The notes below the pieces were generated by a model. That model ran no database searches and had not been told where the DNA came from. It worked only from the letters and a program-made list of their open reading frames with translations. The translations under genes were made by a program, and so were the position numbers. Positions 768 to 45,070 of a stretch of DNA of 64,000 nucleotides are shown piece after piece. Source of the stretch: an uncultured Chromatiales bacterium (GTDB lineage Bacteria > Bacteroidota > Ignavibacteria > SZUA-365); contig CAZWNO010000009.1 in assembly GCA_964635845.1 (NCBI GenBank), forward strand, positions 1,622 through 65,621, given 5' to 3'. The first letter of the stretch is position 1. The number at the start of each line of letters is the position of its first letter.

Positions 768-2183
768 TCAGCGGGTGATGTAGGAAATCTGCTTTTCAAG
801 TTGATCTACCCGGTTGCGAAGGGTGTCGTCATCGGCCATATCGCGTTCGATCGTCTTGCAGGCGTGAATGATGGTGCTGTGATCCCTGCCGCCGAAGTGC
901 AATCCGATCGTTTTGAGAGAGGCCCGGGTCAGGTTCTTTGCCAGGTACATGGCGACCTGGCGCGGCAGGACAATCTCCTGCTTGCGTGTTTTTGCCCGCA
1001 GTGAAGTTTCGGACACCTTAAAGTGATCGGCGACGATTTTTTGAATCTGCTCGACCGTCAGATCCTTCTTGTCCGATGAAATGACGTGCTTGAGTACCCG
1101 TTCGGCGAGCACAACATCGAGAGGTCGCTGTTCAAGCGTATGTCTGGCTATGAGACCGATGTAGCACCCCTCAAGTTCGCGAATGTTGGACTTAACGTTC
1201 GACGCGATGAATTCAATCACGTCCTGTGGAAGATCGATATGATCGCCTTCTGCTTTTTTGCGAAGAATGGCGATGCGGGTTTCCAGGTCCGGCGGTTGCA
1301 CGTCCACTGTCAACCCGCATTGAAATCGTGAAATAAGGCGTTCATCGAGCCCGACGAGGTCCTTCGGCGGCCGGTCTGAAGAGAGAATGATCTGCTTTTT
1401 CAGCTGATGGAGCGTGTTGAAGGTGTGGAAGAACGTATCCTGCGTTCTCTCCTTTCCAGAGAAGAACTGGATGTCGTCGACGATCAGCACGTCCATGTTC
1501 CTGTAGAAATTCGAGAACTCGATGGTGTTGTTGCGCTCGATGGAGTCAACGAAGTCAATCGTGAACTTCTCGCTGCTCACGTAATAGACGCGCTTCTCCG
1601 GATTTACCTGTGAGACATGATTGCCGATCGCCTGAATCAGATGCGTCTTGCCCAGCCCGACTCCTCCATAGAGGACCAGCGGATTGAATGCAGTCTCGCC
1701 CGCGTTGTTGGCGACGTTGAGAGCTGCTGCGCGTGCAAACTGATTTCCATCTCCGCGTATGAAGCTCTCGAAGGTAAATTTCGGATTGAGATTGGTTACG
1801 AACGGTTCTCGTACATAAATCCCCTCGTGCGTCCTCCTTTTTTCCGCTGCCGCGGAAAGGGCGGGCTGACCTGCCGGATAGGGATTTCGTTCCAGGTCCA
1901 GGGCGAACTGATCCTGCTTCGGTACCTTCACCGCATACTGCAGCGAGGCGTTGTCTCCCAGCACTTCACGCAGTGAGCACTGGATGAGTTCGAAGTGGTG
2001 TTCCTCGAGCCATTCATAGAAGTACGTACTCGGTACCTCCACGGTCAGCAGACCGTTTTCGAGGCCGGAGGGTACTATGGGTTCAAACCATGTACTGAAG
2101 GTCAGCGGTTTGACCTGTGGTCGTATCCGCTCGAGGCATTCGCGCCAGACAACGGCAGCAGGCCTGCTGATTTCAACATCCAT
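768..2183 (-). CDS. dnaA: Chromosomal replication initiator protein DnaA
   Basis: 471 aa. AAA+ Walker A GGVGLGKTHL, Walker B LIVDDIQF, sensor/box VII, and a C-terminal DnaA-box-binding HTH (VAMYLAKNLTRASLKTIGLHFGGRDHSTIIHACK). Full-length architecture. Confidence 0.95.
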   Translation of the reverse strand: MDVEISRPAAVVWRECLERIRPQVKPLTFSTWFEPIVPSGLENGLLTVEVPSTYFYEWLEEHHFELIQCSLREVLGDNASLQYAVKVPKQDQFALDLERNPYPAGQPALSAAAEKRRTHEGIYVREPFVTNLNPKFTFESFIRGDGNQFARAAALNVANNAGETAFNPLVLYGGVGLGKTHLIQAIGNHVSQVNPEKRVYYVSSEKFTIDFVDSIERNNTIEFSNFYRNMDVLIVDDIQFFSGKERTQDTFFHTFNTLHQLKKQIILSSDRPPKDLVGLDERLISRFQCGLTVDVQPPDLETRIAILRKKAEGDHIDLPQDVIEFIASNVKSNIRELEGCYIGLIARHTLEQRPLDVVLAERVLKHVISSDKKDLTVEQIQKIVADHFKVSETSLRAKTRKQEIVLPRQVAMYLAKNLTRASLKTIGLHFGGRDHSTIIHACKTIERDMADDDTLRNRVDQLEKQISYITR

Positions 2184-8881: not shown

Positions 8882-10366
8882 TCAGAAACGGTACACGAGC
8901 CCGAACATAAGGCGCGAGACATCGATTTCCTGGTCAGCGCGGAAGGCCTCGTCGGGTACGTCGATATCCGGATCGGTGTAGTTGTATGAGAAAGTGGTGT
9001 AATTGGACATCGTGTATGCCGCATGAATGGCAAAATTATTCTCGAATTCGTATCCGAGTCCAGCGGAGATGGTTTTGATGTCGTAATCCGCTTTTTCCTC
9101 GTCCGCTTCCCAGGGCGAATACCGGTAGCCGAAGCCACCGCGAAGGACCAGACCGGTTTTGGGGATCGAGAATTCGGCGCCGATGCGGAAATTATTGGTC
9201 GCACGGAAGAGCTTGCGGATGTCGTGGTTGAGCGGACTCGATTCAAAATTGTTGGTATCACCGAATTCCAGATCCGAATAGTCCACGATCTCGAAATCGC
9301 CGCTGACGGTCGCGTACTCGACCGGCGACCAGGAGGCGCCGACGCTGTAGACCGGCGACGTCGTGATATCGTAGTTGTTGTTGTCGATGTTCAGCTCGTA
9401 GCTCAGATTTGCGTCCGCGAATCTGGCGGATCCCGATTTGGTGTAATCTTCGCTGATCGTGATCATATTCGCCGTCTGTACTGCCACGCCGAATCGCGCC
9501 ACATCGTTGAGGTTGTAGAGAAAGCCGAAGCGCATATTCCAACCCGAGATGTCCTGCTCCCAATCTTCATCGAGTTCCAGTCGCTGGAAGTCTGTGCGCG
9601 TGACGTTGTCGATGCCCACAATCGCATCCTGCCAGACGTTATTGACGTCCTCCTCGATGAAAGAGCGTTCATAGCGATAGGACCCGGAGAGGATATTGAG
9701 AGACAAACCTATCATCGCATTGGGAGCGACTTCGAGGCTGCCGCCGAAGCTCCACTGGTTCAGTCCGCCGTCTTCTAACTGCTCGATCGTCTGCTGGACA
9801 CGGTTGGCGACAGGTATGGCAAACCAGCCTGGCTTTCCCTCGTCGATATAGCTCAGCACAAGCGTGTCTTCGAGCCCGAGGTTCCATGCAAAATCCAGTT
9901 CCTCGTCGTCGGCGTTGTAAAGTGAAGACTGGATCGAACTCTGGGGATTGTACACGTCCATCTGCATGGTGCCGGTATAATCGAGGAGTCGATTATAGCC
10001 CGCCGCGACCACAAAGCTGCCACGGGCCACGGGGAAGGGGATCGCCAGGTTCAGGTTGTTGAAGACCGTCCCGTTTTCGCTGCCATTTGCCTGCACACCG
10101 AACATGCTCGCATCGTTGTTCATGCCGATATTCGAGAGTCCGAAGGAAAACTCGCGCATGCGCAGCTGGCCGAGACCAGCCGGATTCCAGTACAGGGCCG
10201 AGGCATCGTTTGCGAGTCCCACGAACGCGTTGCCCATTCCGGCACTGCGGGCACTGACCAGGTCTCCGGTGTGCGAGAGCCGCAGGGCGTCCTCAACGGT
10301 CTGGGCGCGGGCATTGGCTGCAAGGATCATCATCATGAATAGGGAAAGAAATATCGCGCGTTTCAT
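8882..10366 (-). CDS. FadL/PorV/PorQ-like 14-strand outer-membrane beta-barrel protein
   Basis: ORF runs to 10435. Likely start is MKRAIFLSLFMMMILAANARAQ (signal peptide). N-terminal SAGMGNAFVGLANDASALYWNPAGL motif is characteristic of FadL-family/PorV-like barrels. Ends ...GLVYRF. Confidence 0.6.
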   Translation of the reverse strand: MKRAIFLSLFMMMILAANARAQTVEDALRLSHTGDLVSARSAGMGNAFVGLANDASALYWNPAGLGQLRMREFSFGLSNIGMNNDASMFGVQANGSENGTVFNNLNLAIPFPVARGSFVVAAGYNRLLDYTGTMQMDVYNPQSSIQSSLYNADDEELDFAWNLGLEDTLVLSYIDEGKPGWFAIPVANRVQQTIEQLEDGGLNQWSFGGSLEVAPNAMIGLSLNILSGSYRYERSFIEEDVNNVWQDAIVGIDNVTRTDFQRLELDEDWEQDISGWNMRFGFLYNLNDVARFGVAVQTANMITISEDYTKSGSARFADANLSYELNIDNNNYDITTSPVYSVGASWSPVEYATVSGDFEIVDYSDLEFGDTNNFESSPLNHDIRKLFRATNNFRIGAEFSIPKTGLVLRGGFGYRYSPWEADEEKADYDIKTISAGLGYEFENNFAIHAAYTMSNYTTFSYNYTDPDIDVPDEAFRADQEIDVSRLMFGLVYRF

Positions 10367-10480
10367 TATAACCTCCAGATGAACCAGGCCGGCAGGGTGT
10401 GTCGATATTCCACCGGCCTGGGACAGGGTGCTCATGGTGTGTGTATCTGATGGACTCGGTACGGAAATTCTGTGTCGATG

Positions 10481-25463: not shown

Positions 25464-27743
25464 TCAGAACTCGAAGCTGAGACCGAAGGTGGGAAGAAGC
25501 GGGAAGAGAGTGAGCTGCTTCAGCTCCCACGTATCGTCGGAATAGTTGTAATCGAGATACCGGGAGAAAGGATTCATGCGGCTGTACGTGTTGTACACGT
25601 TGATGCTCGCCTTCCAGTCCCAATCGAACCATCGGAACGCATAACTGAAATTCAGATCCAGCCGGTGATACGAGGGCATGCGGTAACCGTTGCGCTCGCT
25701 GTACAGTAGCTTAACCCAATCGTTGAGCCCGAACGAATACTGCGAAACAGGGATGGTGAAGGCCTGTCCTGTGCCATACACCCAGACGGCGGTGAATTCC
25801 CATCGCTCGCCGAGCCGGTAATTCAGCACCAGCGACACGTCGTGCCGGCGGTCATAGCGCGGTGGAAAGGTTTTCCCGTAGTTAAGCTCGGGAAAGGTCC
25901 GGTCGGTCCACGCCAGCGTGTATCCCAGCCAGCCGGTGAAACTGCCCTTGCGTTTCTGCACGAACACTTCCACGCCGTACCCCTTGCCGTTGCCGCGGGT
26001 GAGCTCGTTTTCCAGCGGCGCGAAAATCGAGAAGTACGCGTTGTCGCGGAATTCGAGCAGGTTGTTCATCGTCTTGTAATAGCCCTCGACTGAAACGCTG
26101 TACATGCCCTCGTCGAAATCGCGGCTGGCGCCGAGCACATACTGCAGGGAGTAGGAGGGCGACAGGCTGCCGGTCGAAGGGAACCACATGTCCGTAGGAA
26201 GAGCGAGATCGTTCCGTGAGACGAGATGGAGGAACTGGTTCGCGCCGATGAACGCGGCCTTGAGCGTGATCTCGTTGTCGAGCGTGTAGAACGCGGCGAG
26301 ACGCGGTTCGAGCCGGAAATACGGCCCGCGGTCGAAGTAGAAGGCGCGTCCGCCGAGCTGCGCAGTGAAGCGTTCGCTGACCTTCCATTCGTCCTGGAGA
26401 AAGAGCGAGACATCCGTTCCCCTGTGCGTCGGCAGGAAGGGATCGAAATCGAAGAACTCCTCCTCTTCAGACGAGGCCTCGGAAGTGAAGGTGTGCAGCG
26501 TCATTTCCATGCCGGCCTTGAAGCTGTGCTCGGCGCTGTGGAAGTACTCGGCCTCGGCGCGGAGGGAGTAGTCGAGAATGCCCGACACGGTCTTGAACCG
26601 CGTGTTGTCCCATTCCTCGATCTCGGAACTGAAGCGGTAGTCGCTCACGACCGCGGAAACATTGGTGAAAAGTCTGCTCCCGAAAATGTGCGTCCAGCGC
26701 AGGTTGCCCGCGCTGTTTCCCCAGCTGATGCTGAAGTCGTCGGAGTCGGTCTCTCCCGGCTCGCCCATCACGTCGCGGCCGAAGAAGCCGGAAAAGAACA
26801 GGCGGTCGTTTTCACCGAGACGGATATTGCTCTTGGCGACGAGGTCGTAGAAATAATAGTTCAGCGCGGCCTCGTCGGTCATCAGGTCCACCAGCCAGTC
26901 GAGGTACACGCGGCGCCCCGAGATCATGAAGGTGACGTCCTCGTTGATGGGACCGTCGATGGTCAGGCGCGAATCGATCATGCTGATGCCGCCCGCACCG
27001 TGGAACTTGTCCTGCGCGCCTTCGCGCATCGTCACGTCGACGACGGAGGAGAGGCGTCCGCCGTACTCCGCCGGCATGGCGCCCTTGATCAGCGTGACGT
27101 TGTTGATCGCATCGGCATTGAAGGTCGAGAGAAAGCCGCCGAGATGGGAGGGATTGTAGAGCACCATGCGGTCGAGGAGGACGAGATTCTGATCGGGACT
27201 GCCGCCGCGGATGTACAATCCGCTCGAAAGTTCCGACGCCTCCTGCACGCCCGGCAGCAGCTGCAGCGCGCGGAAGAGATCGACCTCGCCGCCCAGCGAG
27301 GGCAGGCGAAGGATCTGTTCGATGGGAACGTCGACCGCGCTGATCCGTCTCGACTCGCCTTGCCGCTCGGCCTCGACGCTGACCTCGCCCAGCTCGATCA
27401 CGGATTCCCGCAGATCGATGCGCAGGCGCAGTTCGTCGCTGTTGCTGATGGCCAGCGGTCGCGTCTCGGTCTGGTAGCCGACAGCGGATATTCGGAGGGA
27501 ATATTCTCCCGGCGCGAGTCCCGCGATGGCGAAGTATCCGTAGCGATTCGTCGCCGCACCCTTGCCCGTGCCGACGAGCAGGACATTCGCGCCGATCACG
27601 GCTTCTCCCGTGCCTGCTTCCTGCACCGTGCCGGAGATCACGGCCTGGGCGTACGTGACCGCAGGAAGCAGGAGGCTGGAAGCAGGAAGAAGGAGCAGGA
27701 AAAGTAACAGTCGATCCGTGATAATCCGTTGCATCCAATTCAT
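25464..27743 (-). CDS. TonB-dependent outer-membrane receptor with N-terminal carboxypeptidase-regulatory-like domain
   Basis: 759 aa. Signal peptide. CarbopepD_reg-like VISGTVQEAGTGEAVIGANVLLVGT...YSLRISAVGYQ. Plug and TonB box region. 22-strand barrel ending LSFEF. Confidence 0.85.
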   Translation of the reverse strand: MNWMQRIITDRLLLFLLLLPASSLLLPAVTYAQAVISGTVQEAGTGEAVIGANVLLVGTGKGAATNRYGYFAIAGLAPGEYSLRISAVGYQTETRPLAISNSDELRLRIDLRESVIELGEVSVEAERQGESRRISAVDVPIEQILRLPSLGGEVDLFRALQLLPGVQEASELSSGLYIRGGSPDQNLVLLDRMVLYNPSHLGGFLSTFNADAINNVTLIKGAMPAEYGGRLSSVVDVTMREGAQDKFHGAGGISMIDSRLTIDGPINEDVTFMISGRRVYLDWLVDLMTDEAALNYYFYDLVAKSNIRLGENDRLFFSGFFGRDVMGEPGETDSDDFSISWGNSAGNLRWTHIFGSRLFTNVSAVVSDYRFSSEIEEWDNTRFKTVSGILDYSLRAEAEYFHSAEHSFKAGMEMTLHTFTSEASSEEEEFFDFDPFLPTHRGTDVSLFLQDEWKVSERFTAQLGGRAFYFDRGPYFRLEPRLAAFYTLDNEITLKAAFIGANQFLHLVSRNDLALPTDMWFPSTGSLSPSYSLQYVLGASRDFDEGMYSVSVEGYYKTMNNLLEFRDNAYFSIFAPLENELTRGNGKGYGVEVFVQKRKGSFTGWLGYTLAWTDRTFPELNYGKTFPPRYDRRHDVSLVLNYRLGERWEFTAVWVYGTGQAFTIPVSQYSFGLNDWVKLLYSERNGYRMPSYHRLDLNFSYAFRWFDWDWKASINVYNTYSRMNPFSRYLDYNYSDDTWELKQLTLFPLLPTFGLSFEF

Positions 27744-35123: not shown

Positions 35124-37217
35124 TTACCGGACGACGGTGATTCGGATGGTCGCCGTCGCTCCCGCCGAATGCAGCCGCACGAAGTAAAGGCCAGGAACGA
35201 CAAAGGCACCGGAGGCATCACGCCCATCCCATCGGACGGTATGGCGGCCGGCGGAACGCTCGGTTTCCTCGAGCACGCGCACGACGCGGCCGAGGAGGTC
35301 CGTGACGACGATCTGCACCGGGGCTCCGGATTTCAGTTCATAGGGGATCGTCGTGGAGACGGCGGACGAAGGTGAAAAAGGATTCGGATAATTCTGTCCG
35401 ACACTGATCTGATCGGTGACGACGGGCGGTACTTCGCCCACCGCGGTAGGATCGATCTGATTGGTTTCCAGCACGAGGAACGCCGTGAAGGGTGTCAGGA
35501 TCGAATGCTTGATGCTCAGGTCGATAATGCTCTGCTTGTCTTCCTCGATCCTGTCTTTTTCGTAACGCTTGATCAGCATGTCGATGTGGGCGGCGGCCCA
35601 GTACGAGGCGACCTGCTTGACGTCGACGCGCGTCGCATTGAACGGCACTGAACGCACCAGGTTGACCGGTGCACCTGCCGCGTCACGATAATTGAGGCGG
35701 ACGTCCGTCGGTCCGAAATCCGTCAGACGGCCTGTGGTCACCAGCTTGTCGAGACTGATGACGGAGCTGAAGTCCTGCGGATACACGAAATAGGCATTTC
35801 CGTCGTCGTAATGCACCGAGGGCGACGATATTCCGCCGATATTCAGTTCGAGCATGATGCGCGAAATCACCGTCTGCAGATTATCCCCTGTCTCGACCAT
35901 CGTCACCTTGCCGCCGCGGTCCTCGGCGATGTCATACAGCTGCTCGATGCGGTCACTGTAGATGATCACCGGAAATATTCCAACGCCGAGAGGATCGTTG
36001 TCATGGATGACCTGCAGCAGCCCCTGCGTCGTTGTCACACCGCTGTTCGGCATGCCGTCGGTGAGAAAGAGCATGCGCCGCACGGCGTCGGGACGGAAAT
36101 CCGCACTCAGCGCGGAGCGGAATGCGGTCTCGTAATTCGTCGATCCGCTCGCAATGTACATACGCTCGATGAAGTCGATTCCCTCGGCGATGTTTTCCGC
36201 CGTCGCCTCGATCAGCGCATTCTCGCTTGGATGGCTGACCGCGAAATTGCTGAAGAGCACGATGCGGAAACGGTCGGTTTCGTTCAGTTGCAGGAGAATG
36301 CCGGTGACCGCATCCGCCACCGTTTTACGCCGATCCTCATACATGCTGCCGGAGGCGTCGAGCACGAATACCAGGTCGCGCGGCTGTGTCACGGTTTCAT
36401 TGAGTCGCACCGGATGCCAGCAGATGAAATACGGACGTTCTGATCCGTCTTCCTCGAGATAGGTGAGGGAGGGAAAGATGGAAAAGGCGTCCTGCGGTTT
36501 GTACGCCACCTCGAAATCCTGGGTGTACATCTGCTGCTCGAGGCCGAAATCCACCCGGTAGGCAAAATCCCCCAGGCGCTGCGCTCGGCAGAGCAGCGGA
36601 TTACTGTCGAAATTGGTTGTCAGCTCCTCGATACGCTGGTGAGAAGACACGTTCACGCGCAGCTCCGTGCATTCCACCGGCACGGACTGATACCCCTGCA
36701 GGTTGAGCGGGTAGCGGTAATGCACGTTTCCGTCGGGAGTCATCGGCAATGTGTGGAAGTAGCGGATCTCGATACGGCGGGAACTGCGCGGATTGATGGG
36801 AAACACTTTCAGCTGGAAGCGGTTGTTGCCCAGTGATTCCAGGATGGCTGGATCGCGCCGCTGTCCGACCACGACGCTGTCGTACATGCGCTGCGCATCT
36901 TCCTTTTTCTTGACGATGAAGATGAGGCGGTTGCCGTCCACCCACAGCCAGAGACCGTCGACTTTCGCACCTTCGGGGAGCTGGAAGGCATAGAATCCTT
37001 CGAGTGTGATGTTGTTCTCGTTGTAGAACTCTTCGTCCACATGTGTGACCGCCAGCTGTCCAGTGATGTTCACCGTGGTGCGGATGTTGCTGATGCGCAG
37101 GTTGTACACCGGGGTATCGGTGCCCGGCCGACGCGCGTACAGCACGCCGGCTTCGGCCGCAGCAGTGCCCAGCAGGAAGAGCAGCAGTGGGAGAAGGATC
37201 CGTGTAGCCCGTGTCAT
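35124..37217 (-). CDS. VIT domain plus von Willebrand factor A domain protein with T9SS C-terminal sorting domain
   Basis: 697 aa. Signal peptide. VIT-like N-domain. vWA MIDAS DASGSM. C-terminal QNYPNPFSPSS...RITVVR. Confidence 0.7.
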   Translation of the reverse strand: MTRATRILLPLLLFLLGTAAAEAGVLYARRPGTDTPVYNLRISNIRTTVNITGQLAVTHVDEEFYNENNITLEGFYAFQLPEGAKVDGLWLWVDGNRLIFIVKKKEDAQRMYDSVVVGQRRDPAILESLGNNRFQLKVFPINPRSSRRIEIRYFHTLPMTPDGNVHYRYPLNLQGYQSVPVECTELRVNVSSHQRIEELTTNFDSNPLLCRAQRLGDFAYRVDFGLEQQMYTQDFEVAYKPQDAFSIFPSLTYLEEDGSERPYFICWHPVRLNETVTQPRDLVFVLDASGSMYEDRRKTVADAVTGILLQLNETDRFRIVLFSNFAVSHPSENALIEATAENIAEGIDFIERMYIASGSTNYETAFRSALSADFRPDAVRRMLFLTDGMPNSGVTTTQGLLQVIHDNDPLGVGIFPVIIYSDRIEQLYDIAEDRGGKVTMVETGDNLQTVISRIMLELNIGGISSPSVHYDDGNAYFVYPQDFSSVISLDKLVTTGRLTDFGPTDVRLNYRDAAGAPVNLVRSVPFNATRVDVKQVASYWAAAHIDMLIKRYEKDRIEEDKQSIIDLSIKHSILTPFTAFLVLETNQIDPTAVGEVPPVVTDQISVGQNYPNPFSPSSAVSTTIPYELKSGAPVQIVVTDLLGRVVRVLEETERSAGRHTVRWDGRDASGAFVVPGLYFVRLHSAGATATIRITVVR

Positions 37218-37652
37218 GATAGTACCTCCGGCTCCGTGTGAGTGAAACGACTACTTCAGGACAGACGCACTCTAGACACATGAAATGCGGGATCGTTCCC
37301 ATGCATCGTGAGAAAGTGGCACCCGTGATTGAGGTGACGGCGCATGCGCCGCAACGGTTTCGTATGACAATGTGATGTTCCGCGATGTGGCGGCCTGTAG
37401 GCATGTGTTCCCGTCAACCGAGGCAGGGAATGGATCGCAGAATCTCCCAAACCATGATATTCCTTCCTACAGTAGTTGACATTGATATCTCCTTTCTATA
37501 GTTTTGCGGGAAAAGTTCCCGCCCGGGCCGGAGGAGGACGCGCCTGACCCCGCGGAAGACGATTCGTTCGAAATAGATGACGCAAATGTGTCTCCGGTCC
37601 CCGTGTTCGCGGGGGTCTGATGCTGTTTTCATTCACAACACAGGAGGTTTCG

Positions 37653-39410
37653 ATGAGAAAACGATTTTCCGTCTTCCGACCGCCGGGTCTGACAGTTCCG
37701 TCGGCCGCGATGACGGGCGCTGGAATCGGTGAGCGATGGCTGTGGCTTTTCATGCTGCTCGCCTTTGCGGACGTAGCCCGTGCGCAGGTCGAGAGGGATT
37801 GGCTGCCGACAGCGGCGCAATCCGCCGATCACACGCAGATCCTCGAGTGGCAGACGGTCACGCATATCGCACACCCAGGACTCTCGAAATGGTGTCTCGC
37901 ACTCGGGGACATCGATGCCGACGGCTTCGACGATTTCGCGATGGGTTCGGAGTATGACACGACATTCATCTTCCGGGGAGGCGATCCCTTCGATCACGAG
38001 CCCGCGTTTTTTCTCTCCGGCGGATCGAGCGGACTGGCATGCGCGGATTTCAACGGCGACGGAAGGAAGGATCTCGTCACCGGTGTCGCCATGACAAACC
38101 GGGATCTGGATCCTGAGACACGCGGGCGGATCTTTATGTATTTCGGGAAGGACACAGCCCCATTCCTTGGACCAGATCCGGACCTCGTGATTCGGGGGGA
38201 TACGACGCAGTATTGGGGTTCGGCGAGTTTTCCCGAAGGCGGGGATCATCGCAGCGGTTTCCAAGTGCTAGATTTCAACGGGGACGGCTATGATGATCTA
38301 CTCACGCAGACACGTACCGGTCGACTTCCATTGATGTATTACCCGATCATCTTTTTCGGTGGTCCGGATATCGACACCATCCCCGATGTCGAAATTCTCG
38401 CGGTTGATCGTGGCAGCAGCAACCGTTTCCCGATGGATATTCTGATCGGTGACTTGAATGGTGACGGATGCGACGATATCCTGTTGGAAGGCAGCTATCT
38501 CGAAACAGGCTCTCGTGTCAATTACTGGGATCTGTTTCTCGGCAACCGTTCGGCGATGGCGTCGCTCCCAGACAGGACACTGCGCTCGGACATCGGTTGG
38601 AGCCCTGCGAGATCCGGACTCTCAGCGGTATTTGATGTCAACGGCGATGGGATCGACGACATCGTCGATGCCGCCGTCCACAGGGAATATGGCGATCCCC
38701 TGGTTTTTCTGGGTTCGCGTGAGCTGCCTGAAAACATCGAACCGAACGATTCCATCCCGAATCCCTGGCCGACGCTGGGTGGCATCGTCGGTGCATGGAG
38801 CATCAATCCCGTCGGCGACATGAACGGTGACGGCACGCGCGATCTGCTCATCAGTTGGGCCACCTATTTCATGCGCGACGGAAGTCTGTATTACCTGTAC
38901 CCCATGCGACCGGGCGGACTCGTGCGCGAACATACCGGGCATATCGGCATGATCGAATCGGAGGATCACGTGGTCGATGGAGCATTTGATATCGGCGATG
39001 TCAACGGCGACGGTTACGATGACTTCGCGGTCCGCGGCCGAGGTTTATCGGAGCCGCCAACGATAGGATGGCAGCGTATGCGGCGATTCATAATCTGCCT
39101 TGGCGCTGACAACCTGCGAACCGATGTTCTGCCACTCGCTTTGTCATCGACGTTTGAAATGCAACTGTATCCGAACCCCGTATTCGGCGGCACCGCCACG
39201 GTGAATCTGCGAACGCACGGCGTCACACCAGGACAGGTCACGATAGAGATCATCGACGCGCTTGGCCGTGTCGTATCGCGGCAGGAGGAACTGATCCCAG
39301 CGACAACCGCCGATTTATCCGTATCGGTTTCCGGACTCCGTCCGGGTAACTACCACGTATTCCTGCGTCGGGGAAACGCCGTGACGCAGTCGGTGCTCAC
39401 CATTTTATAA
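37653..39410 (+). CDS. FG-GAP/VCBS-repeat beta-propeller protein with T9SS C-terminal sorting domain
   Basis: ORF from 37620. Start taken at MRKRFSVF, which is preceded by AGGAGG. Repeated DxDxDGxxD FG-GAP-like motifs (GDIDADGFDD, FNGDGRKDL, FNGDGYDDL, NGDGCDD, NGDGIDD, NGDGTRD, NGDGYDD). C-terminal LYPNPVFGG...LTIL CTD. Confidence 0.6.
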   Translation: MRKRFSVFRPPGLTVPSAAMTGAGIGERWLWLFMLLAFADVARAQVERDWLPTAAQSADHTQILEWQTVTHIAHPGLSKWCLALGDIDADGFDDFAMGSEYDTTFIFRGGDPFDHEPAFFLSGGSSGLACADFNGDGRKDLVTGVAMTNRDLDPETRGRIFMYFGKDTAPFLGPDPDLVIRGDTTQYWGSASFPEGGDHRSGFQVLDFNGDGYDDLLTQTRTGRLPLMYYPIIFFGGPDIDTIPDVEILAVDRGSSNRFPMDILIGDLNGDGCDDILLEGSYLETGSRVNYWDLFLGNRSAMASLPDRTLRSDIGWSPARSGLSAVFDVNGDGIDDIVDAAVHREYGDPLVFLGSRELPENIEPNDSIPNPWPTLGGIVGAWSINPVGDMNGDGTRDLLISWATYFMRDGSLYYLYPMRPGGLVREHTGHIGMIESEDHVVDGAFDIGDVNGDGYDDFAVRGRGLSEPPTIGWQRMRRFIICLGADNLRTDVLPLALSSTFEMQLYPNPVFGGTATVNLRTHGVTPGQVTIEIIDALGRVVSRQEELIPATTADLSVSVSGLRPGNYHVFLRRGNAVTQSVLTIL

Positions 39411-39429
39411 ACGTACCTCGGGAGGTTTT

Positions 39430-39609
39430 ATGAAGCACACCATCTTCCTTTTTCTGCTCTGCTGCTGCACGGCTCAGGCCCAGGATCCGGAATTCTGGAT
39501 CGGGTCCTGGGGTGTCACACCCCAATGGGATGCCACCGTACGCAATGTCTGGCCGGTCCGCGGCATGTTGAACCCATTAATCCTACCCCCCCCCCGATCA
39601 AGGCGCTGA
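39430..39609 (+). other. Orphan 59-aa signal-peptide ORF; probably the displaced N-terminus of the downstream 1299-aa gene
   Basis: GGAGG then ATG. MKHTIFLFLLCCCTAQAQ signal peptide. Reading continues through the C10 tract and stops at 39607-39609. The downstream gene's reading frame is open (no stop) from 39581 with no start codon until GTG 39782. Confidence 0.55.
39586..39595. repeat. Homopolymeric C10 tract at the junction of two out-of-frame ORF segments
   Basis: tcctaCCCCCCCCCCgatca. Removing 1 C (or adding 2) fuses the signal-peptide ORF to the 1299-aa ORF. Confidence 0.8.
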
Positions 39610-39781
39610 AGCCCGCACTCTCCTGAACTGTCTCTCCGACAGCATCCTACCGCATGCTAATTGGCTCGGGCTCAATCTCGTCGGCTTCACCGTTCGCGCC
39701 GATGAGGATCCACTGAATCTCTTTCATGGCGACCATGTCATTCCGGATGAGAATTTCTGGAATAACAATGCGGTCGATGAG

Positions 39782-42700
39782 GTGTGCCGCAGCGCGGATC
39801 CTCTCGATCTGCAAGTCCTCGTCCGTGACGCACAATTGAGCAGGCGGTTCATGGGAGAACGGATAATACTGCATCCTGAATCGAGCGATGACTTCACAAC
39901 GGATGGCGGATACGATCCGGATGATCCCACCGAATTCCGACAATTCGTTCACGATCCCAGCCCCTTCACGACGACACTGAGACAGCGCACCGGCGGCTTC
40001 AACTCCATTTACATGTCCGGCAATTCGGGCACGGTCAGTGGTATGACGCTCGAGCGTCTTCAGGAGATGTCGGCGTATCGCGACGGAGATACGGAGGACC
40101 CGAACCGCCTCTCCGGTCTGTACCAGGTTTCCGTGATCATTCTGCCGCGGTACGACACGGGCTATCCCCTGCCTAACGACGATGCAACGCATGTACTCAA
40201 TGTGCGGTTCAGGTATACCTATCCAATCACTGGTGCGACCGTGTACCTCAACTGTCCCTTGGAGGGCCGGCAGTTATGGGAAGGCGATCCCGGTGCGAGG
40301 ACGCGCCGAACGGGTGTGCAGGAGATCGTCATCGGTCAGGTCGAAGTGCAACAGACCGACGGTCGTCAAGGAGGCGACGTGATTTTCGTCGACCAGGGCG
40401 ATCTTGTCAATCACGGAGGGTGGACAAGAACAGGAATGGACGATGTGCGCGGCCCGCGCCGTCTTCGGGAGCACGGGGAGTTTCATCTCCAGGAAATCCG
40501 TGGCGATTTCGACGTTCAGATTTTCTATGGCGACGATGACGTCCATCTCTGGTTGGATGCGGTATGTCTCACGAATCCCGCGACCTTCGGGCTCTGGCAT
40601 CCGGACAATCCGGGCACCCTACCCGTCCATACCGGATATCGTGCCGCGATGGACAACCGCATGGCTTTCCTGTTGCGCAACAATGATCCGAATCTCGCCG
40701 GTGTCGGCGGCATACCTGGATTGCGGTTCGTCATGGGCGAGGAACAGGTATTCAACAACGGGACGTACTGGACCACGTTTCTCCTGAGTCGCCTGATCGC
40801 GGATGAGACGGATGACCATGTGCAGATGTTTTCCACTTACGGCTCATGGACGAACACGGAGCTGACTCCTGTACTCGCAGCCGAGATGATCACCGGACCG
40901 TACAATTATCCTCTCCTCACCGATCATCCGCGTCCGACCCTGCAGGGAATGACTGCACAGAACTACCTCACACCGCTCTATGATGTGAACACCTGGCCGG
41001 ACGGTTTTCGCGGCATGTGGGGTTTGTTCCTCGCCAATATGCATACGAGGTCACTTTTCGCACCTGATCAGCCTTGGATCCCGTTCATCCAGAATCACAC
41101 GAATCTCGCTGTAACCAATCCTCCAGCGGGCTGGTGGGATGGAGTCCCGAACCGTGAGCCTTCGGCTTCCGAGCTGCGCTTCGAATGCAATACCGCGCTG
41201 GCATTTGGGGCAAGCGGTGTGCTGTTCTATGCCTTCTCGAGCATTCCGTACATGCCCGATCAACCGACAATACCACCAACCGTTTTCGCTGCCGACCGCA
41301 TCCTGCCGAATCCCGCGGCAGGTGTCGATTGGTTCGATCCCATTGACATGAATGCTGGAACAATGGGATTCCTGGGGAGCGAAGGCGTGGAGGACGTCCG
41401 GAGAATTCTGGACTGGAATGGCGAAAATAAATGGGATTCGACGCAGGCCTATATCCACGATTTTCTTGAACCGGTCGGATCCTATATATCGCAGCATTTA
41501 CGCTGGCAGACGGGACTGCAGTGGTATTGCCGTGGTGATGCCGATGCCGGATCTTGCGATCTCGTGTCCATGATTGTCAGTCGCAGGCAGGATATCCCGG
41601 ACGGCATCGATCCCCAGGAGCAGACCTTTGTCATGGTCAGCGAATTCGAACGCAACGCCGCATCCCCTCCACCGGAGAGTTCTCCTGCGAGTCGTTTTCT
41701 GTTCGTCGTGAACGGCAACACATTTGACGGTCCCCTCCATGCAGGTGTTGAGGCCGTCGGACAACGGCACATCACTGTCAAGCTGGGCACCGATGGCGGA
41801 CTTGTCGATGAATGGCGCGTGACGAATGTACTGTCCGGCGATATCCATGTCGTGCGGGCGAGCGACGCACCAGACGAAACTTCGTACGCGAACGGTTTCA
41901 CCGAGTACTTCGCGCCCGGGGCTGCGGCACTGTATCGGTTGGATCCCATGGTCGGCGAGACGATCGACTTCAATCCGGTCGTCGATCCTCCGCCACCCTG
42001 TCCGATGCGCTCCATCTACATTGAACCAGCGGCGATGCTGCGCCTGAAATCCACGGATGACGTTTCGTTCGGCTTGGGAAAAGGACTATTCTGTGATGGA
42101 ACACTGATCGCGGATCACAGCACATTCCGATCCTGCGATCTTGAGGTGCAGTGGGATGGGATCATTGCACGTAATGGCGGTTCGGTGTCACTCGAGGGAG
42201 CGACGCTGTACAATGCGGGAGTGGTCGCAGGCTCGGGAGGCTCGGTCACGCTCGACGAGAGTTGCGCGATCCACGGTGCGAACGTCGCGATGTTCAATTG
42301 TGATGCTACCCTTACCAGCACCGCGACGCAATCCACCAGCGTCTACTATCATCTTTCGTCCGTCGGGTACGGGTGTTCGAACCTGCAATACGATATCGCG
42401 ACAGGCAACGGGCTCCACGGATCCACGGCAATTATTACCGCATTTACGACCGACCCGTATCCGGTGCAAATCGATGAATGCACGTTCTCCGGTTTCTGGC
42501 GGGGTGTACACGCGTACGAGAGTGTGGTCCGCGGCGATGTCGATTGGACATTCCCTCCTGATTGTGGAAACAACAGCATCCGATGCAAGGCTATCGGCCT
42601 ACACGCGCTCGAGAACAGCCTGATTGATCTCGGTGATGGCACATACGATTTCATGCCGGAATCCTACAATGAAATCATTTATTCGGATCCGCAGGGATTC

Positions 42701-43681
42701 AGTGCGGTGACGGATGCCACCTCCGGGATTGACGCCGTCTGGAACTGGTGGGAACCCACCCTGCGCTACAGCGGAAATCTGGGGTATGATCCGACCTGCA
42801 TCTTAGATCCCATACCATTGACTAGATCGGGCGGTGAAACGGTTAATTCCCCACAGCAGCTGGTCGCGTATACTCCTCCTCCTCCGCCCGGCATCCGCGG
42901 TCAGGTAAAAGCCGCGCTTCGGCAGCATGATCACGGGGCCGCGCGACACATCATCGGGCAGTTCCTGCAGTCATCTGCCGCCCTTGACGCGGATTTCAAA
43001 ATGTTGCGGTTCATCCACGGAGCGCTGCGGTTCATCGCCGCACCCGCCGCGATCGACAGTCTTCTCACGCTCTGTCTGGCGCGATCGGATCTCGATTCCA
43101 AGCTGCTCGCCGCCGACATCGCGGCAGCGGACAGTCTCTACGTCGATGCGCTCGCGGTGCTCAACGCCTACAGCTTCGCCGGTTCACCGGCATTGCTCAA
43201 GCGCGCGCTGATCCGCAAGTCGCTTCTCTATCCGCGGGCGAAACAAGGCGGATATCGAGACGGCGTGCTTGCGCTCGATTCGCTTCGCGGAATGAACGAC
43301 AGCCTGCTGCTGCGTTTCATCGATCTCTATCCGCTCCTGTACAGCCGACTCTCCCGTCCGCTATCCTCATCGATCCCGAAACGAGCGGCGCAGCCCCTGA
43401 TCGAGAGGGCGCTCCCCGTGGGCATCGAGGTCTGGCCGAACTACCCGAATCCCTTCACCGATGTCACCTCCTTCACATTCAAGCTCGGGGAGGCGACGCA
43501 CGTGCGGCTCGCGATCTACGATGCGATGGGCAGGGAAGTGGCGGTGGTCACGAACGCGGATTACGACCGTGGTGTGCATTCGGCGGTGCTGCGCGCGGGC
43601 GCGCTGCCGAGCGGACTGTATTTCTCCCGCCTCACCACGGATAAAGGAGTAACACAGCGGAAGATGATGTTGATGCGGTGA
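39782..43681 (+). CDS. Very large secreted protein (probable beta-helix/adhesin-like) with T9SS C-terminal sorting domain; N-terminus apparently frameshifted
   Basis: 1299 aa from a GTG start with no signal peptide of its own. Gly/Ser/Thr/Asn-rich repeat region (…ATLYNAGVVAGSGGSVTLDESCAIHGANVAMFNCDATLTSTATQ…) suggests a parallel beta-helix. C-terminal VWPNYPNPFTDVT...KMMLMR CTD. Confidence 0.65.
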   Translation: MCRSADPLDLQVLVRDAQLSRRFMGERIILHPESSDDFTTDGGYDPDDPTEFRQFVHDPSPFTTTLRQRTGGFNSIYMSGNSGTVSGMTLERLQEMSAYRDGDTEDPNRLSGLYQVSVIILPRYDTGYPLPNDDATHVLNVRFRYTYPITGATVYLNCPLEGRQLWEGDPGARTRRTGVQEIVIGQVEVQQTDGRQGGDVIFVDQGDLVNHGGWTRTGMDDVRGPRRLREHGEFHLQEIRGDFDVQIFYGDDDVHLWLDAVCLTNPATFGLWHPDNPGTLPVHTGYRAAMDNRMAFLLRNNDPNLAGVGGIPGLRFVMGEEQVFNNGTYWTTFLLSRLIADETDDHVQMFSTYGSWTNTELTPVLAAEMITGPYNYPLLTDHPRPTLQGMTAQNYLTPLYDVNTWPDGFRGMWGLFLANMHTRSLFAPDQPWIPFIQNHTNLAVTNPPAGWWDGVPNREPSASELRFECNTALAFGASGVLFYAFSSIPYMPDQPTIPPTVFAADRILPNPAAGVDWFDPIDMNAGTMGFLGSEGVEDVRRILDWNGENKWDSTQAYIHDFLEPVGSYISQHLRWQTGLQWYCRGDADAGSCDLVSMIVSRRQDIPDGIDPQEQTFVMVSEFERNAASPPPESSPASRFLFVVNGNTFDGPLHAGVEAVGQRHITVKLGTDGGLVDEWRVTNVLSGDIHVVRASDAPDETSYANGFTEYFAPGAAALYRLDPMVGETIDFNPVVDPPPPCPMRSIYIEPAAMLRLKSTDDVSFGLGKGLFCDGTLIADHSTFRSCDLEVQWDGIIARNGGSVSLEGATLYNAGVVAGSGGSVTLDESCAIHGANVAMFNCDATLTSTATQSTSVYYHLSSVGYGCSNLQYDIATGNGLHGSTAIITAFTTDPYPVQIDECTFSGFWRGVHAYESVVRGDVDWTFPPDCGNNSIRCKAIGLHALENSLIDLGDGTYDFMPESYNEIIYSDPQGFSAVTDATSGIDAVWNWWEPTLRYSGNLGYDPTCILDPIPLTRSGGETVNSPQQLVAYTPPPPPGIRGQVKAALRQHDHGAARHIIGQFLQSSAALDADFKMLRFIHGALRFIAAPAAIDSLLTLCLARSDLDSKLLAADIAAADSLYVDALAVLNAYSFAGSPALLKRALIRKSLLYPRAKQGGYRDGVLALDSLRGMNDSLLLRFIDLYPLLYSRLSRPLSSSIPKRAAQPLIERALPVGIEVWPNYPNPFTDVTSFTFKLGEATHVRLAIYDAMGREVAVVTNADYDRGVHSAVLRAGALPSGLYFSRLTTDKGVTQRKMMLMR

Positions 43682-43870: not shown

Positions 43871-45070
43871 CTACTCGATCACCGTCAGTTTTCCTGTGCG
43901 GAATTCGGCGCCGCTTGAGAGGCGATAGATGTAGAAACCGGGCTCGAGGGTTGAGGGAGAGTACTCCGCGGCATGCGTGCCCGGGGGAAGGTCGGTGTCG
44001 AGCACGGTGGCGACGCGGCGTCCGAGCACGTCGAAGAGTTCGAGTCGGACGCTGCCCTGTGCCGCGAGGGAGAAGCTGAAATGCACTCGGGCGGTTCGGA
44101 GAACAGGATTCGGATAGCTCTGACCGAGTTCGATGCTCACGGGAGACGGCGTGGGTGCCACGCCGGTGACAAAGGGATTGAACAGGCGATCGACCCATAC
44201 GCTGTCGTCGCAGGCCTCGAGACGCACGCGTATGTACAGATTTTCCATGATCACGGCCTTGGTCCGCCGCGTGATACGGTGCTCGTCGTATTCGCGCTGG
44301 ATGAATCCGGCGAAGCGCTGGTACATGGGCACGAGTTCGGCGGTCCCGCCGAGCCGGTAGAAGACACCGCCGCTCTCCTTGCAGAGCCTGCGCAACTGCG
44401 TTTCGTCGATGGACGCGCCCAGAGCGACGATGAATACACGCACGCCGTGCCGGTGCGCATCCTCGATCAGATCATCGATATGCACGCTGCTGCTGTTGTC
44501 GTTGCCGGTGGTGAAGGCCAGCACGGCCTGCACGCGCGCAGTACCCGAAGTGTAGAGTGTCGTGATGCCCGAGCTGATGCCGTCATACAGCGCGCGCCTT
44601 CCACTCACACTCATGGCGTCAACGGCGCCGCGCAGCTCGCCACGGTCATTGCTGAGAAAGGTTCGAATCGTCGGACGGTCATCGAAGGAGACGATCGCTG
44701 CGTAGTCGCAGGTCTTGGACATGGTATCGATGAAGGCGCGCCCCGCCTCGATCACTGTCGGAAGGTCCGCTCCCACGGTGCTCGAATTGTCGAATGCCAG
44801 CACGAGTTCGTAGCAGGAATTTCTTTCCCGCGACGCCAGTCGGTCGATCTGGAAATCGTTGGTGTCGACGCGTCCGATCTGCTCCTCGTAGATCAACTGC
44901 CGCCTGTCCAGCTCATAAATCACGCTGTCGCCGCAGTACGTGGCGAAGTACAGCTGGTAGTAGTAGTAGTCCGGCGTGTTGGACTTCAGCAGCCGAAGTT
45001 CGAGGCGCGGCTGAGCGGATACGCCCGCGGCGGTGATGAGGAGGATCAGGAAGAAGAACATTCGTTTCAT
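43871..45070 (-). CDS. vWA domain protein with T9SS C-terminal sorting domain
   Basis: 399 aa. Signal peptide MKRMFFFLILLITAAGVSAQ. vWA (LAFDNSSTV MIDAS). C-terminal QSYPNPVLRTA...LTVIE. Confidence 0.65.
   Translation of the reverse strand: MKRMFFFLILLITAAGVSAQPRLELRLLKSNTPDYYYYQLYFATYCGDSVIYELDRRQLIYEEQIGRVDTNDFQIDRLASRERNSCYELVLAFDNSSTVGADLPTVIEAGRAFIDTMSKTCDYAAIVSFDDRPTIRTFLSNDRGELRGAVDAMSVSGRRALYDGISSGITTLYTSGTARVQAVLAFTTGNDNSSSVHIDDLIEDAHRHGVRVFIVALGASIDETQLRRLCKESGGVFYRLGGTAELVPMYQRFAGFIQREYDEHRITRRTKAVIMENLYIRVRLEACDDSVWVDRLFNPFVTGVAPTPSPVSIELGQSYPNPVLRTARVHFSFSLAAQGSVRLELFDVLGRRVATVLDTDLPPGTHAAEYSPSTLEPGFYIYRLSSGAEFRTGKLTVIE

Follow-up and report, generated by a model that had tools for sequence, protein, structure and literature searches.

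A conserved poly-C tract as a putative phase-variation switch in the gene of a type IX secretion cargo protein from an uncultured Bacteroidota bacterium

We analyzed a 64,000-nt stretch of DNA (hereafter, the window) from an uncultured bacterium recorded as Chromatiales and placed in the Ignavibacteria, phylum Bacteroidota, by GTDB (GenBank assembly GCA_964635845.1, contig CAZWNO010000009.1, positions 1,622–65,621 of the forward strand). In this window a run of ten cytosines (C10) at positions 39586–39595 separates the coding region of a signal peptide from that of a large protein carrying a C-terminal domain (CTD) of the type IX secretion system (T9SS). We propose that the tract is probably a simple sequence repeat (SSR) phase-variation, or contingency, locus rather than a one-off sequencing error. 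The evidence lies in the anatomy of the gene, an ancestral architecture in which the two parts are fused, persistence of the tract at a single site among lineages with saturated synonymous sites, variation in its length, and purifying selection on both parts.

Results

Anatomy of the split gene

The gene begins with an ATG at 39430 on the forward strand, which opens a frame reading MKHTIFLFLLCCCTAQAQDPEF. A Shine–Dalgarno (SD) sequence, GGGAGG, at 39420–39425, 4 nt 5′ of the ATG, marks this codon as a real translation start, and GGGAGG, GGAGG or GGTGG occupies the equivalent position in 8/8 orthologous loci compared. Positions 39430–39480 encode a predicted Sec signal peptide, MKHTIFLFLLCCCTAQA, with a predicted signal peptidase I (SPase I) cleavage site between AQA and Q, after which the mature part starts QDPEFWIGSWGV. 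The (A/H/N/S)-A-Q ending of the signal peptide is kept among orthologs, and Gln at +1 after cleavage agrees with the Q-rule of Bacteroidetes (PMC5837995). A lipoprotein signal was judged unsuitable and rejected, because the conserved Cys at residue 11–12 is too near the N-terminus and is preceded by Leu at −1, while the AQA–Q junction suits SPase I.

As the first-pass annotation of the window had described, the signal-peptide frame runs into the C10 tract (CCCCCCCCCC), which begins 52 codons into the gene and 34 codons past the predicted cleavage site, and soon terminates. The stop, a TGA at 39607–39609, does exist, although it lies 11 nt beyond the tract and not 12 nt as that annotation had it. 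The 59-aa product of this OFF allele (39430–39609) is identical to the recorded protein P0012 and consists of the signal peptide, 34 conserved mature residues, PPP and the out-of-frame residues RSRR before the stop.

The body of the cargo gene (39596–43681, forward strand, 1361 codons) is in the +1 frame relative to the ATG and reads, from the first base after the tract onward, DQGAEARTLLNCLSDSILPH. Its frame is open from 39581, directly after a TAA at 39578–39580, and the first ATG, GTG or TTG in it is the GTG at 39782, 186 nt past the tract, from which a 1299-aa protein would be read, just as had been claimed. Products from the starts in this frame have no hydrophobic N-terminus, in keeping with the earlier statement that the downstream open reading frame (ORF) lacks a signal peptide. 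We therefore rejected the idea that the body is translated from a separate start followed by a second signal peptide: the first start is 186 nt away, and the 62 codons between it and the tract are conserved as protein (DxGAEARTLLNCLSDSILP..LGLNLVG). In the orthologs, too, the same signal peptide lies upstream of the tract position, with no start codon between the tract and the body; the pattern that the first-pass annotation had named as a refutation, a start and signal peptide past the tract in orthologs, is not seen.

Deleting one C in silico (C9) joins the two parts into a single ORF of 1416 aa and a C12 tract gives 1417 aa, which bears out the ~1416-aa fusion predicted earlier; overall, the in-frame lengths 9, 12 and 15 give 1416–1418 aa, whereas C10 gives 59 aa. 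The junction peptide across the repaired tract is GMLNPLILPPPDQGAEAR. The fused product ends in a T9SS type A C-terminal sorting domain (43442–43669, residues 1338–1413), whose predicted presence was confirmed by matches to TIGR04183 (E=7.2e-10, 38.7 bits, curated cut-off 23) and PF18962 (E=2.9e-7, 31.1 bits, curated cut-off 27); the profile also matches PDB 8glj, a Por CTD. Signal peptide and CTD are thus in different frames in the C10 allele and on one polypeptide in the C9 and C12 forms and in tract-less orthologs. A promoter and terminator scan around the locus gave no signal beyond shuffle level.

Rarity of the tract

The C10 tract is the sole C or G run of at least 8 nt in the 64-kb window, in which a C10 would be expected 0.03 times according to dinucleotide-preserving shuffles. 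When the related loci described below are added (208 kb in total), every C or G run of at least 8 nt lies at the homologous site, belongs to a paralog or falls in junk sequence at scaffold gaps. The other three PPP, PPPP or PPPPP runs of the same gene are built from mixed proline codons, and CCC makes up 28% of the proline codons in the long open frames of the window, indicating that poly-proline coding does not explain the tract.

The tract in related genomes

Eleven relatives were found when the in-silico fused N-terminus served as query, all of them from metagenomes or from unclassified Bacteroidota metagenome-assembled genomes (MAGs). The tract is present at the homologous codon in five lineages besides the window, at 49–75% amino acid identity and with lengths from 9 to 16. 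Taking the window (C10) as reference, the tract is C13 in locus L002 (73% identity), C10 in L003 (75%), C12 in L004 (= L013; 59%), C11 in L016 and L007 (one species in two assemblies; 49%), C9 in L024 (the same species in a third sample) and C16 in L025 (a new lineage). In all tract alleles for which there is DNA, the signal-peptide ORF is out of frame with the body, and all are accordingly OFF. The in-frame lengths differ among lineages, being 9/12 for the window, L002 and L003, 10/13 for L004, L016 and L024, and 14/17 for L025; five alleles (window, L002, L003, L016 and L007) have one C too many and three (L004, L024 and L025) have one too few. The first-pass annotation had set a phase-variation switch against a homopolymer error, and this recurrence at a homologous codon with lengths from 9 to 16 favors the switch.

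The two alleles of the species sampled three times, C9 in L024 and C11 in L016, come from different samples and are embedded in a 2.7-kb flank that is 99.9–100% identical, the tract being the sole gap. Contigs or scaffolds end or break at the tract in L007, L024, L009/L011, L012 and the paralog L020. The SPAdes scaffolds of L007 (positions 2890–2953) and L024 (~2726–2735) contain poly-G42, N10 gaps and degraded duplicate copies adjoining the tract. Poly-G42 is a no-signal artefact of two-colour chemistry, and this debris indicates that the site defeats short-read assembly.

Contiguous ORFs, which the first-pass annotation had named as a comparison to make, do occur among relatives whose tract is interrupted or absent. 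The closest relative, L001 (86% identity), has an interrupted tract, CCCCAACCCC, and reads CTCCCCAACCCCGAC, and L005 has no tract and reads CACCTCCAACCCCGG; both are contiguous across the site. A partial protein from a Logan assembly, P0017, is likewise contiguous (ON), reads NPVPAPPRIDATLL / NPVPAPPRIDATLLNCL at the junction, and aligns gap-free, at 91% identity, to L003 repaired in silico to C9. Farther away, in L008/P0011 (38%) and in the distant paralogs L018, L019 and L021–L023, the signal peptide and an FY[IV]G..G..P motif are encoded in a single frame. Most full-length family members have ~60 residues ahead of the start of the family profile, and in the distant ones these include a signal peptide in frame.

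In a neighbour-joining tree rooted on L008 as outgroup, the tract-bearing L016 is the first branch and tract-bearing lineages are spread throughout. Given this spread, the simplest history would be that the tract is old and was lost by interruption in L001, L005 and L006.

Two of the in-frame relatives carry lesions elsewhere in the gene. L001 has an in-frame TAG in place of Gln at ~3437, between LQGMTA and NYL, and in L005 a Gln position at ~6310 is occupied by a TAG and a frameshift near residue 1104 cuts off the CTD. These lesions could be real inactivation or assembly errors; their presence suggests that the gene is often selected against.

Other repeats in the 5′ end of the gene family

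One of the lineages without a poly-C tract, L006 (= L014; GCA_049663345.1, contig JBATDG010000094), instead contains a perfect (TTCTC/CTCTT)x9.4 repeat at 2856–2902. The repeat codes for the signal peptide's hydrophobic core, and the mature protein is not in the frame of the L006 ATG; removing one unit or adding two in silico creates a 1434- or 1439-aa ORF starting MKRRIFLFSSLLFSSLLFSLTAQAQ and continuing DPDFW. In the paralog L020 (28% identity; MAG20, JACZJN010000103), a C12 at bases 1–12, at the start of the contig, directly precedes the mature N-terminus EPFYIG(VHGF). Such convergence of different repeats on the 5′ end of one family would be hard to explain except by selection for switchability.

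None of the other tandem repeats in the window resembles a switch. For example, six copies of a 7-mer, GCAGGAA, at 27661–27701 match one another too poorly (77% matches) for slippage and read as a Leu-rich h-region; they belong to the part of a SusC/RagA-like outer-membrane protein gene (25464–27743, reverse strand) that codes for its signal peptide. In assembly GCA_049663345.1 (MFD10475 bin42), the family is represented by at least four or five divergent copies on separate contigs (L006/L014, L009/L011, L013, L015 and L017), some of them identical to contigs of GCA_049289355.1, so that either the family has several paralogs or the bin is mixed.

Selection on both halves of the gene

Synonymous sites between the lineages are saturated (pS 0.6–0.85), whereas pN is 0.08–0.36 in the 50-codon segment upstream of the tract and ~0.10–0.40 in the body. 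Where dN/dS could be computed, it was ~0.08–0.38 upstream and 0.12–0.17 downstream. In the five loci that extend as far as the stop codon, the bodies are open over 1342–1363 codons, and L025 runs off the end of the locus. These values point to purifying selection on both halves. Since pN is well below the saturated pS and the bodies are intact, the halves appear to have long been translated as one protein even though the sampled tract alleles are out of frame, and the constraint on both of them indicates that the selected product is the fusion and that the frameshifted state is not an old fixed lesion. Nor would an uninterrupted run of at least 9 C survive such synonymous turnover by chance, given that CCC is 28% of proline codons and that the other three proline runs of the gene are mixed.

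Discussion

A proposed slippage switch on a secreted protein

We propose that C10 acts as a hypermutable contingency tract between the signal-peptide region and the body of the 1416-aa T9SS cargo protein. Slipped-strand mispairing at replication would change the run by ±1 C. With 9, 12 or 15 C the signal peptide would be joined to the body, and the product would pass first through Sec and then through the T9SS (ON); at any other length translation would stop after 59 aa, leaving a body without a signal peptide and with no start for 186 nt (OFF). The window allele would be OFF and a single deletion away from ON. Length change would be fast and reversible within populations, and selection on surface exposure, through phage, grazers or substrate availability, might maintain the switch. 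The locus displays three features expected of an SSR locus, namely a repeat within an ORF that sets the frame, a site kept with varied length in six lineages, and a product that is secreted or surface-exposed. That the switch is reversible we infer from the intact, constrained halves in OFF genomes and from the ON relative at 91% identity.

Several observations weigh against this proposal. All seven tract alleles with DNA are OFF, an outcome with a chance probability of ~0.06–0.09; when the ON relative P0017 is included, OFF is seen in 7/8 (P ~0.26), which is not significant, yet odd. P0017 is known as a protein only and may carry an interrupted tract. The comparison of C9 with C11 in near-identical flanks involves low-coverage assemblies (4.3x and 7.5x) with scaffold gaps beside the tract, and the difference between L024 and L016 could be technical. 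For length heterogeneity within a clonal population, this difference and the assembly breaks at the tract are indirect hints, and high-frequency, reversible change is a prediction. Furthermore, the MAGs seem to be environmental, judging by their titles (Microflora Danica, Zodletone), whereas most documented cases of SSR phase variation are from host-adapted bacteria and known phase variation in Bacteroides is invertase-based (PMC11868660). The exact length in the window may also be miscalled, with C10 standing for C9.

Alternative explanations

The uniform OFF state would be accounted for if the out-of-frame genotype were normal and recoding, either ribosomal frameshifting at CCC-C or slippage of RNA polymerase, supplied a low, constant output of full-length protein. 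Such a mechanism would fit the purifying selection on both halves of genes that are out of frame in all seven tract alleles with DNA, and the same +1 shift would serve the window, L002, L003 and L016/L007 (5/7 alleles, in 4/6 lineages). PPP causes ribosome stalling, and runs of at least 10 nt would be longer than the 8–9 bp RNA:DNA hybrid. In addition, CCC-C is known to be prone to +1 slippage of tRNAPro, which m1G37 and EF-P restrain (e.g., PMC7577736). The direction of the shift is not conserved, however: L004 (C12), L024 (C9) and L025 (C16) would need the opposite one. There is no conserved RNA structure 3′ of the tract (RNAalifold −6.3 kcal/mol, covariation term near zero), nor is there an SD-like stimulator 5′ of it or a 0-frame stop next to it, and we therefore rejected programmed +1 frameshifting as the main mechanism. 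A hairpin, CTGTC-TCTCC-GACAG, 33 nt past the tract was also dismissed, as it is too distant and not conserved (absent from L016, L003 and L002). Transcriptome-wide, slippage insertions by RNA polymerase were reported only in A/T runs, with none in G/C runs (PMC5574713), and in-frame relatives exist. A leakier form of the same idea, in which OFF is the selected resting state, +1/−1 slippage of tRNAPro or of RNA polymerase leaks some enzyme, and tract length tunes the leak, shares the low probability that we assign to recoding as a whole; we consider either form unlikely, although some leak through +1 slippage of tRNAPro on CCC-C at a PPP stall is plausible. If it were true, it would amount to dosage control of a costly secreted enzyme at three levels (replication, transcription and translation) in free-living Bacteroidota.

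The same OFF alleles could instead mark an accidental mutation hotspot with no switch function, in a dispensable gene that is repeatedly knocked out, adaptively or neutrally, and is heading for loss. The lesions in the tract-less L001 (TAG) and L005 (TAG and the frameshift near residue 1104) and the tiny size of the family (47 representatives in 1.84 billion proteins) are in keeping with this, and a review cautions that some homopolymer indels represent "mutation-prone adaptive variation" and not phase variation (PMC11868660). Yet the bodies of 1342–1363 codons are stop-free in five lineages that are 25–50% apart in protein sequence (dN/dS 0.12–0.17), the short upstream segment is constrained as well, and irreversible pseudogenes would not remain intact for so long; an accidental tract would erode synonymously, as in L001, L005 and L006, rather than persist and lengthen to C16. 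We accordingly find gene loss quite unlikely. Least probable, in our view, is that the true sequences are all in frame, the gene ordinary and constitutive, and the run lengths simply miscalled. Long poly-C/G runs are difficult to sequence, the scaffolds of L007 and L024 contain poly-G junk, N10 gaps and error-laden duplicates at the tract, several contigs end there, and coverage is low in some assemblies. Such an artefact would nevertheless require that 7/7 independent assemblies (SPAdes, MEGAHIT, JGI, Logan) be wrong, in both directions. It would not account for the retention of at least 9 C at one codon across saturated divergence while other proline runs are mixed, nor for the CTCTT repeat of L006, and the tract itself would be real even if its called length were wrong. 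We therefore continue to regard slipped-strand phase variation as the probable explanation.

The cargo protein and its genomic neighbourhood

The first 785 residues past the tract have no sequence match in Pfam or the PDB. An AlphaFold2 model built with a 39-sequence alignment (pLDDT 88, pTM 0.89; a single-sequence model with pLDDT 34 was discarded) contains a glycoside-hydrolase-like (beta/alpha)8 barrel module resembling GH42, with beta-sandwich domains (39596–41950, forward strand), which belongs to no Pfam family, and in the window protein the barrel is followed by a helical stretch and the CTD. The sequence places the protein in no glycoside hydrolase family, its N-R-E-P motif is invariant in the family, and its likeness to these enzymes is one of fold. 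We read the cargo, by its fold, as a secreted or surface-attached glycoside-hydrolase-type enzyme of an undescribed family, with the 785-aa module as a candidate new glycoside hydrolase family. The analogy to surface adhesins drawn in the first-pass annotation needs correction, in that the cargo resembles such an enzyme and is not a demonstrated adhesin.

An exhaustive search with a hidden Markov model found 47 representatives of the family among 1.84 billion proteins, and a profile search of 5.8 billion proteins added little new. Por_Secre_tail is present in 18/39 family members, and whole-protein scans matched two relatives to the Pfam right-handed beta-helix model. The motifs DAVCLTNPAT, IQNH[ST]NL and NREPSA.ELR are invariant in the family.

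Directly upstream lies a gene for an FG-GAP repeat protein with a T9SS CTD (37620–39410, forward strand; Pfam FG-GAP E=5e-25, Por_Secre_tail), which ends 19 nt before the ATG of the switch gene. An FG-GAP/VCBS-repeat T9SS gene occupies the same position in L001–L007, L024 and L025, with a gap of 16–19 nt where both genes are called intact. Given the 19-nt gap, the two genes are probably co-transcribed as one operon, and their proteins may work together. Further T9SS cargo genes flank the pair on the reverse strand, one for a VIT and VWA protein with a FlgD-Ig-like/CTD tail (35124–37217) and one for a VWA-CTD protein (43871–45070), placing the locus within a cluster of genes for secreted or surface proteins.

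The window is otherwise an ordinary chromosomal region with dnaA, argS, hflX, uvrA, an ABC-F gene, a gene for a Dpp5-like peptidase and several more T9SS-CTD genes. dnaA (768–2183, reverse strand; TIGR00362 E=1e-161) near the start of the window puts the locus at a distance of ~38 kb from the region of the probable replication origin. The protein encoded at 8882–10435 has PorV/PorQ-family and BamG-family matches below the curated cut-offs, and none of porK, porL, porM, porN or sov is within the 64-kb window.

Comparison with known systems and significance

Phase variation by repeat slippage is textbook biology for host-adapted pathogens. The closest precedent for the window locus is nanH3 of Gardnerella, whose poly-C phase variation was established by sequencing, with length heterogeneity within colonies (Kurukulasuriya, Patterson and Hill; bioRxiv 10.1101/2020.09.16.300947). 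Both genes have a poly-C tract within the ORF, starting ~100–160 nt in and soon after the part that codes for the signal peptide, and its lengths are 8–14 in nanH3 and 9–16 here; both would be full length at C9 or C12 and otherwise yield truncated peptides of ~40–60 aa; and in both the signal peptide is lost in automated annotation and the cargo is an extracellular glycosidase-type enzyme. The Gardnerella tract lies directly past the cleavage site, as in the paralog L020, whereas the window's tract lies 34 codons past it. Moreover, the Gardnerella host is a human vaginal actinobacterium and its protein is anchored to the cell wall or membrane, whereas the window protein is a T9SS substrate of an uncultured member of the Bacteroidota, and heterogeneity in Gardnerella was sequenced within colonies, whereas length variation here is known from comparison between assemblies.

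The repeat unit and position in the ortholog L006 recall the opa genes of Neisseria, in which, as quoted in the same preprint (bioRxiv 10.1101/2020.09.16.300947), CTCTT pentamers lie in the signal-peptide coding region and repeat number decides whether the ATG is in frame. Unlike opa, L006 is a related locus and not the window itself, belongs to another protein family with another secretion route, and its switching is predicted from sequence. The poly-G/C phasomes of Campylobacter, Neisseria, Haemophilus and Helicobacter (e.g., PMC6321876 and PMC5084427) likewise have intragenic G/C tracts of ~8–13 nt near the 5′ end of genes for surface or secreted proteins, where position is kept, length varies by strain and translation is turned ON or OFF. 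Those are host-adapted Proteobacteria and Campylobacterota with many such loci per genome, in contrast to one tract in 64 kb here, and if the lineages studied here are free-living, as sample names suggest, the driver cannot be host adaptive immunity.

Within the same phylum, Bacteroides turns capsules, SusC/SusD and S-layer proteins ON and OFF stochastically (PMC11868660), and surface and glycan-utilization functions are involved there too. Switching in Bacteroides acts through site-specific inversion of promoters, whereas repeat slippage is proposed here and no inverted repeats or invertase are implicated; the same review attributes phase variation in Bacteroides to invertases and presents Gardnerella as a new organism to which phase variation has been extended. 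The conserved frame transition at a slippery homopolymer, with selection acting on both ORF halves, is also reminiscent of prfB-type +1 frameshifting and of transcriptional realignment (dnaX, IS elements, poly-A rescue in endosymbionts). It differs from them in that the direction of the shift varies, a stimulatory SD, stop or RNA structure is absent, and the run is C and not A/T.

Full-text literature searches, in which co-mentions were judged by title and abstract, returned no description of an SSR switch on a T9SS cargo. The mechanism is a known one, but the phylum, the habitat and the secretion system have not previously been described for such switching. The split has a practical consequence: the window gene is annotated as a 59-aa orphan (P0012) and an N-terminally truncated protein without a signal peptide (P0001), most orthologs are recorded in the same way, with gene calls that start just past the tract position and lack the signal peptide, and the cargo will therefore be overlooked when secretomes are predicted from such MAGs. 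Counts of tract length in metagenomic reads could act as a field readout of the ON/OFF state. More broadly, our findings suggest that bet-hedging with surface and secreted proteins also takes place outside hosts, where phage, grazers or patchy substrates are possible drivers.

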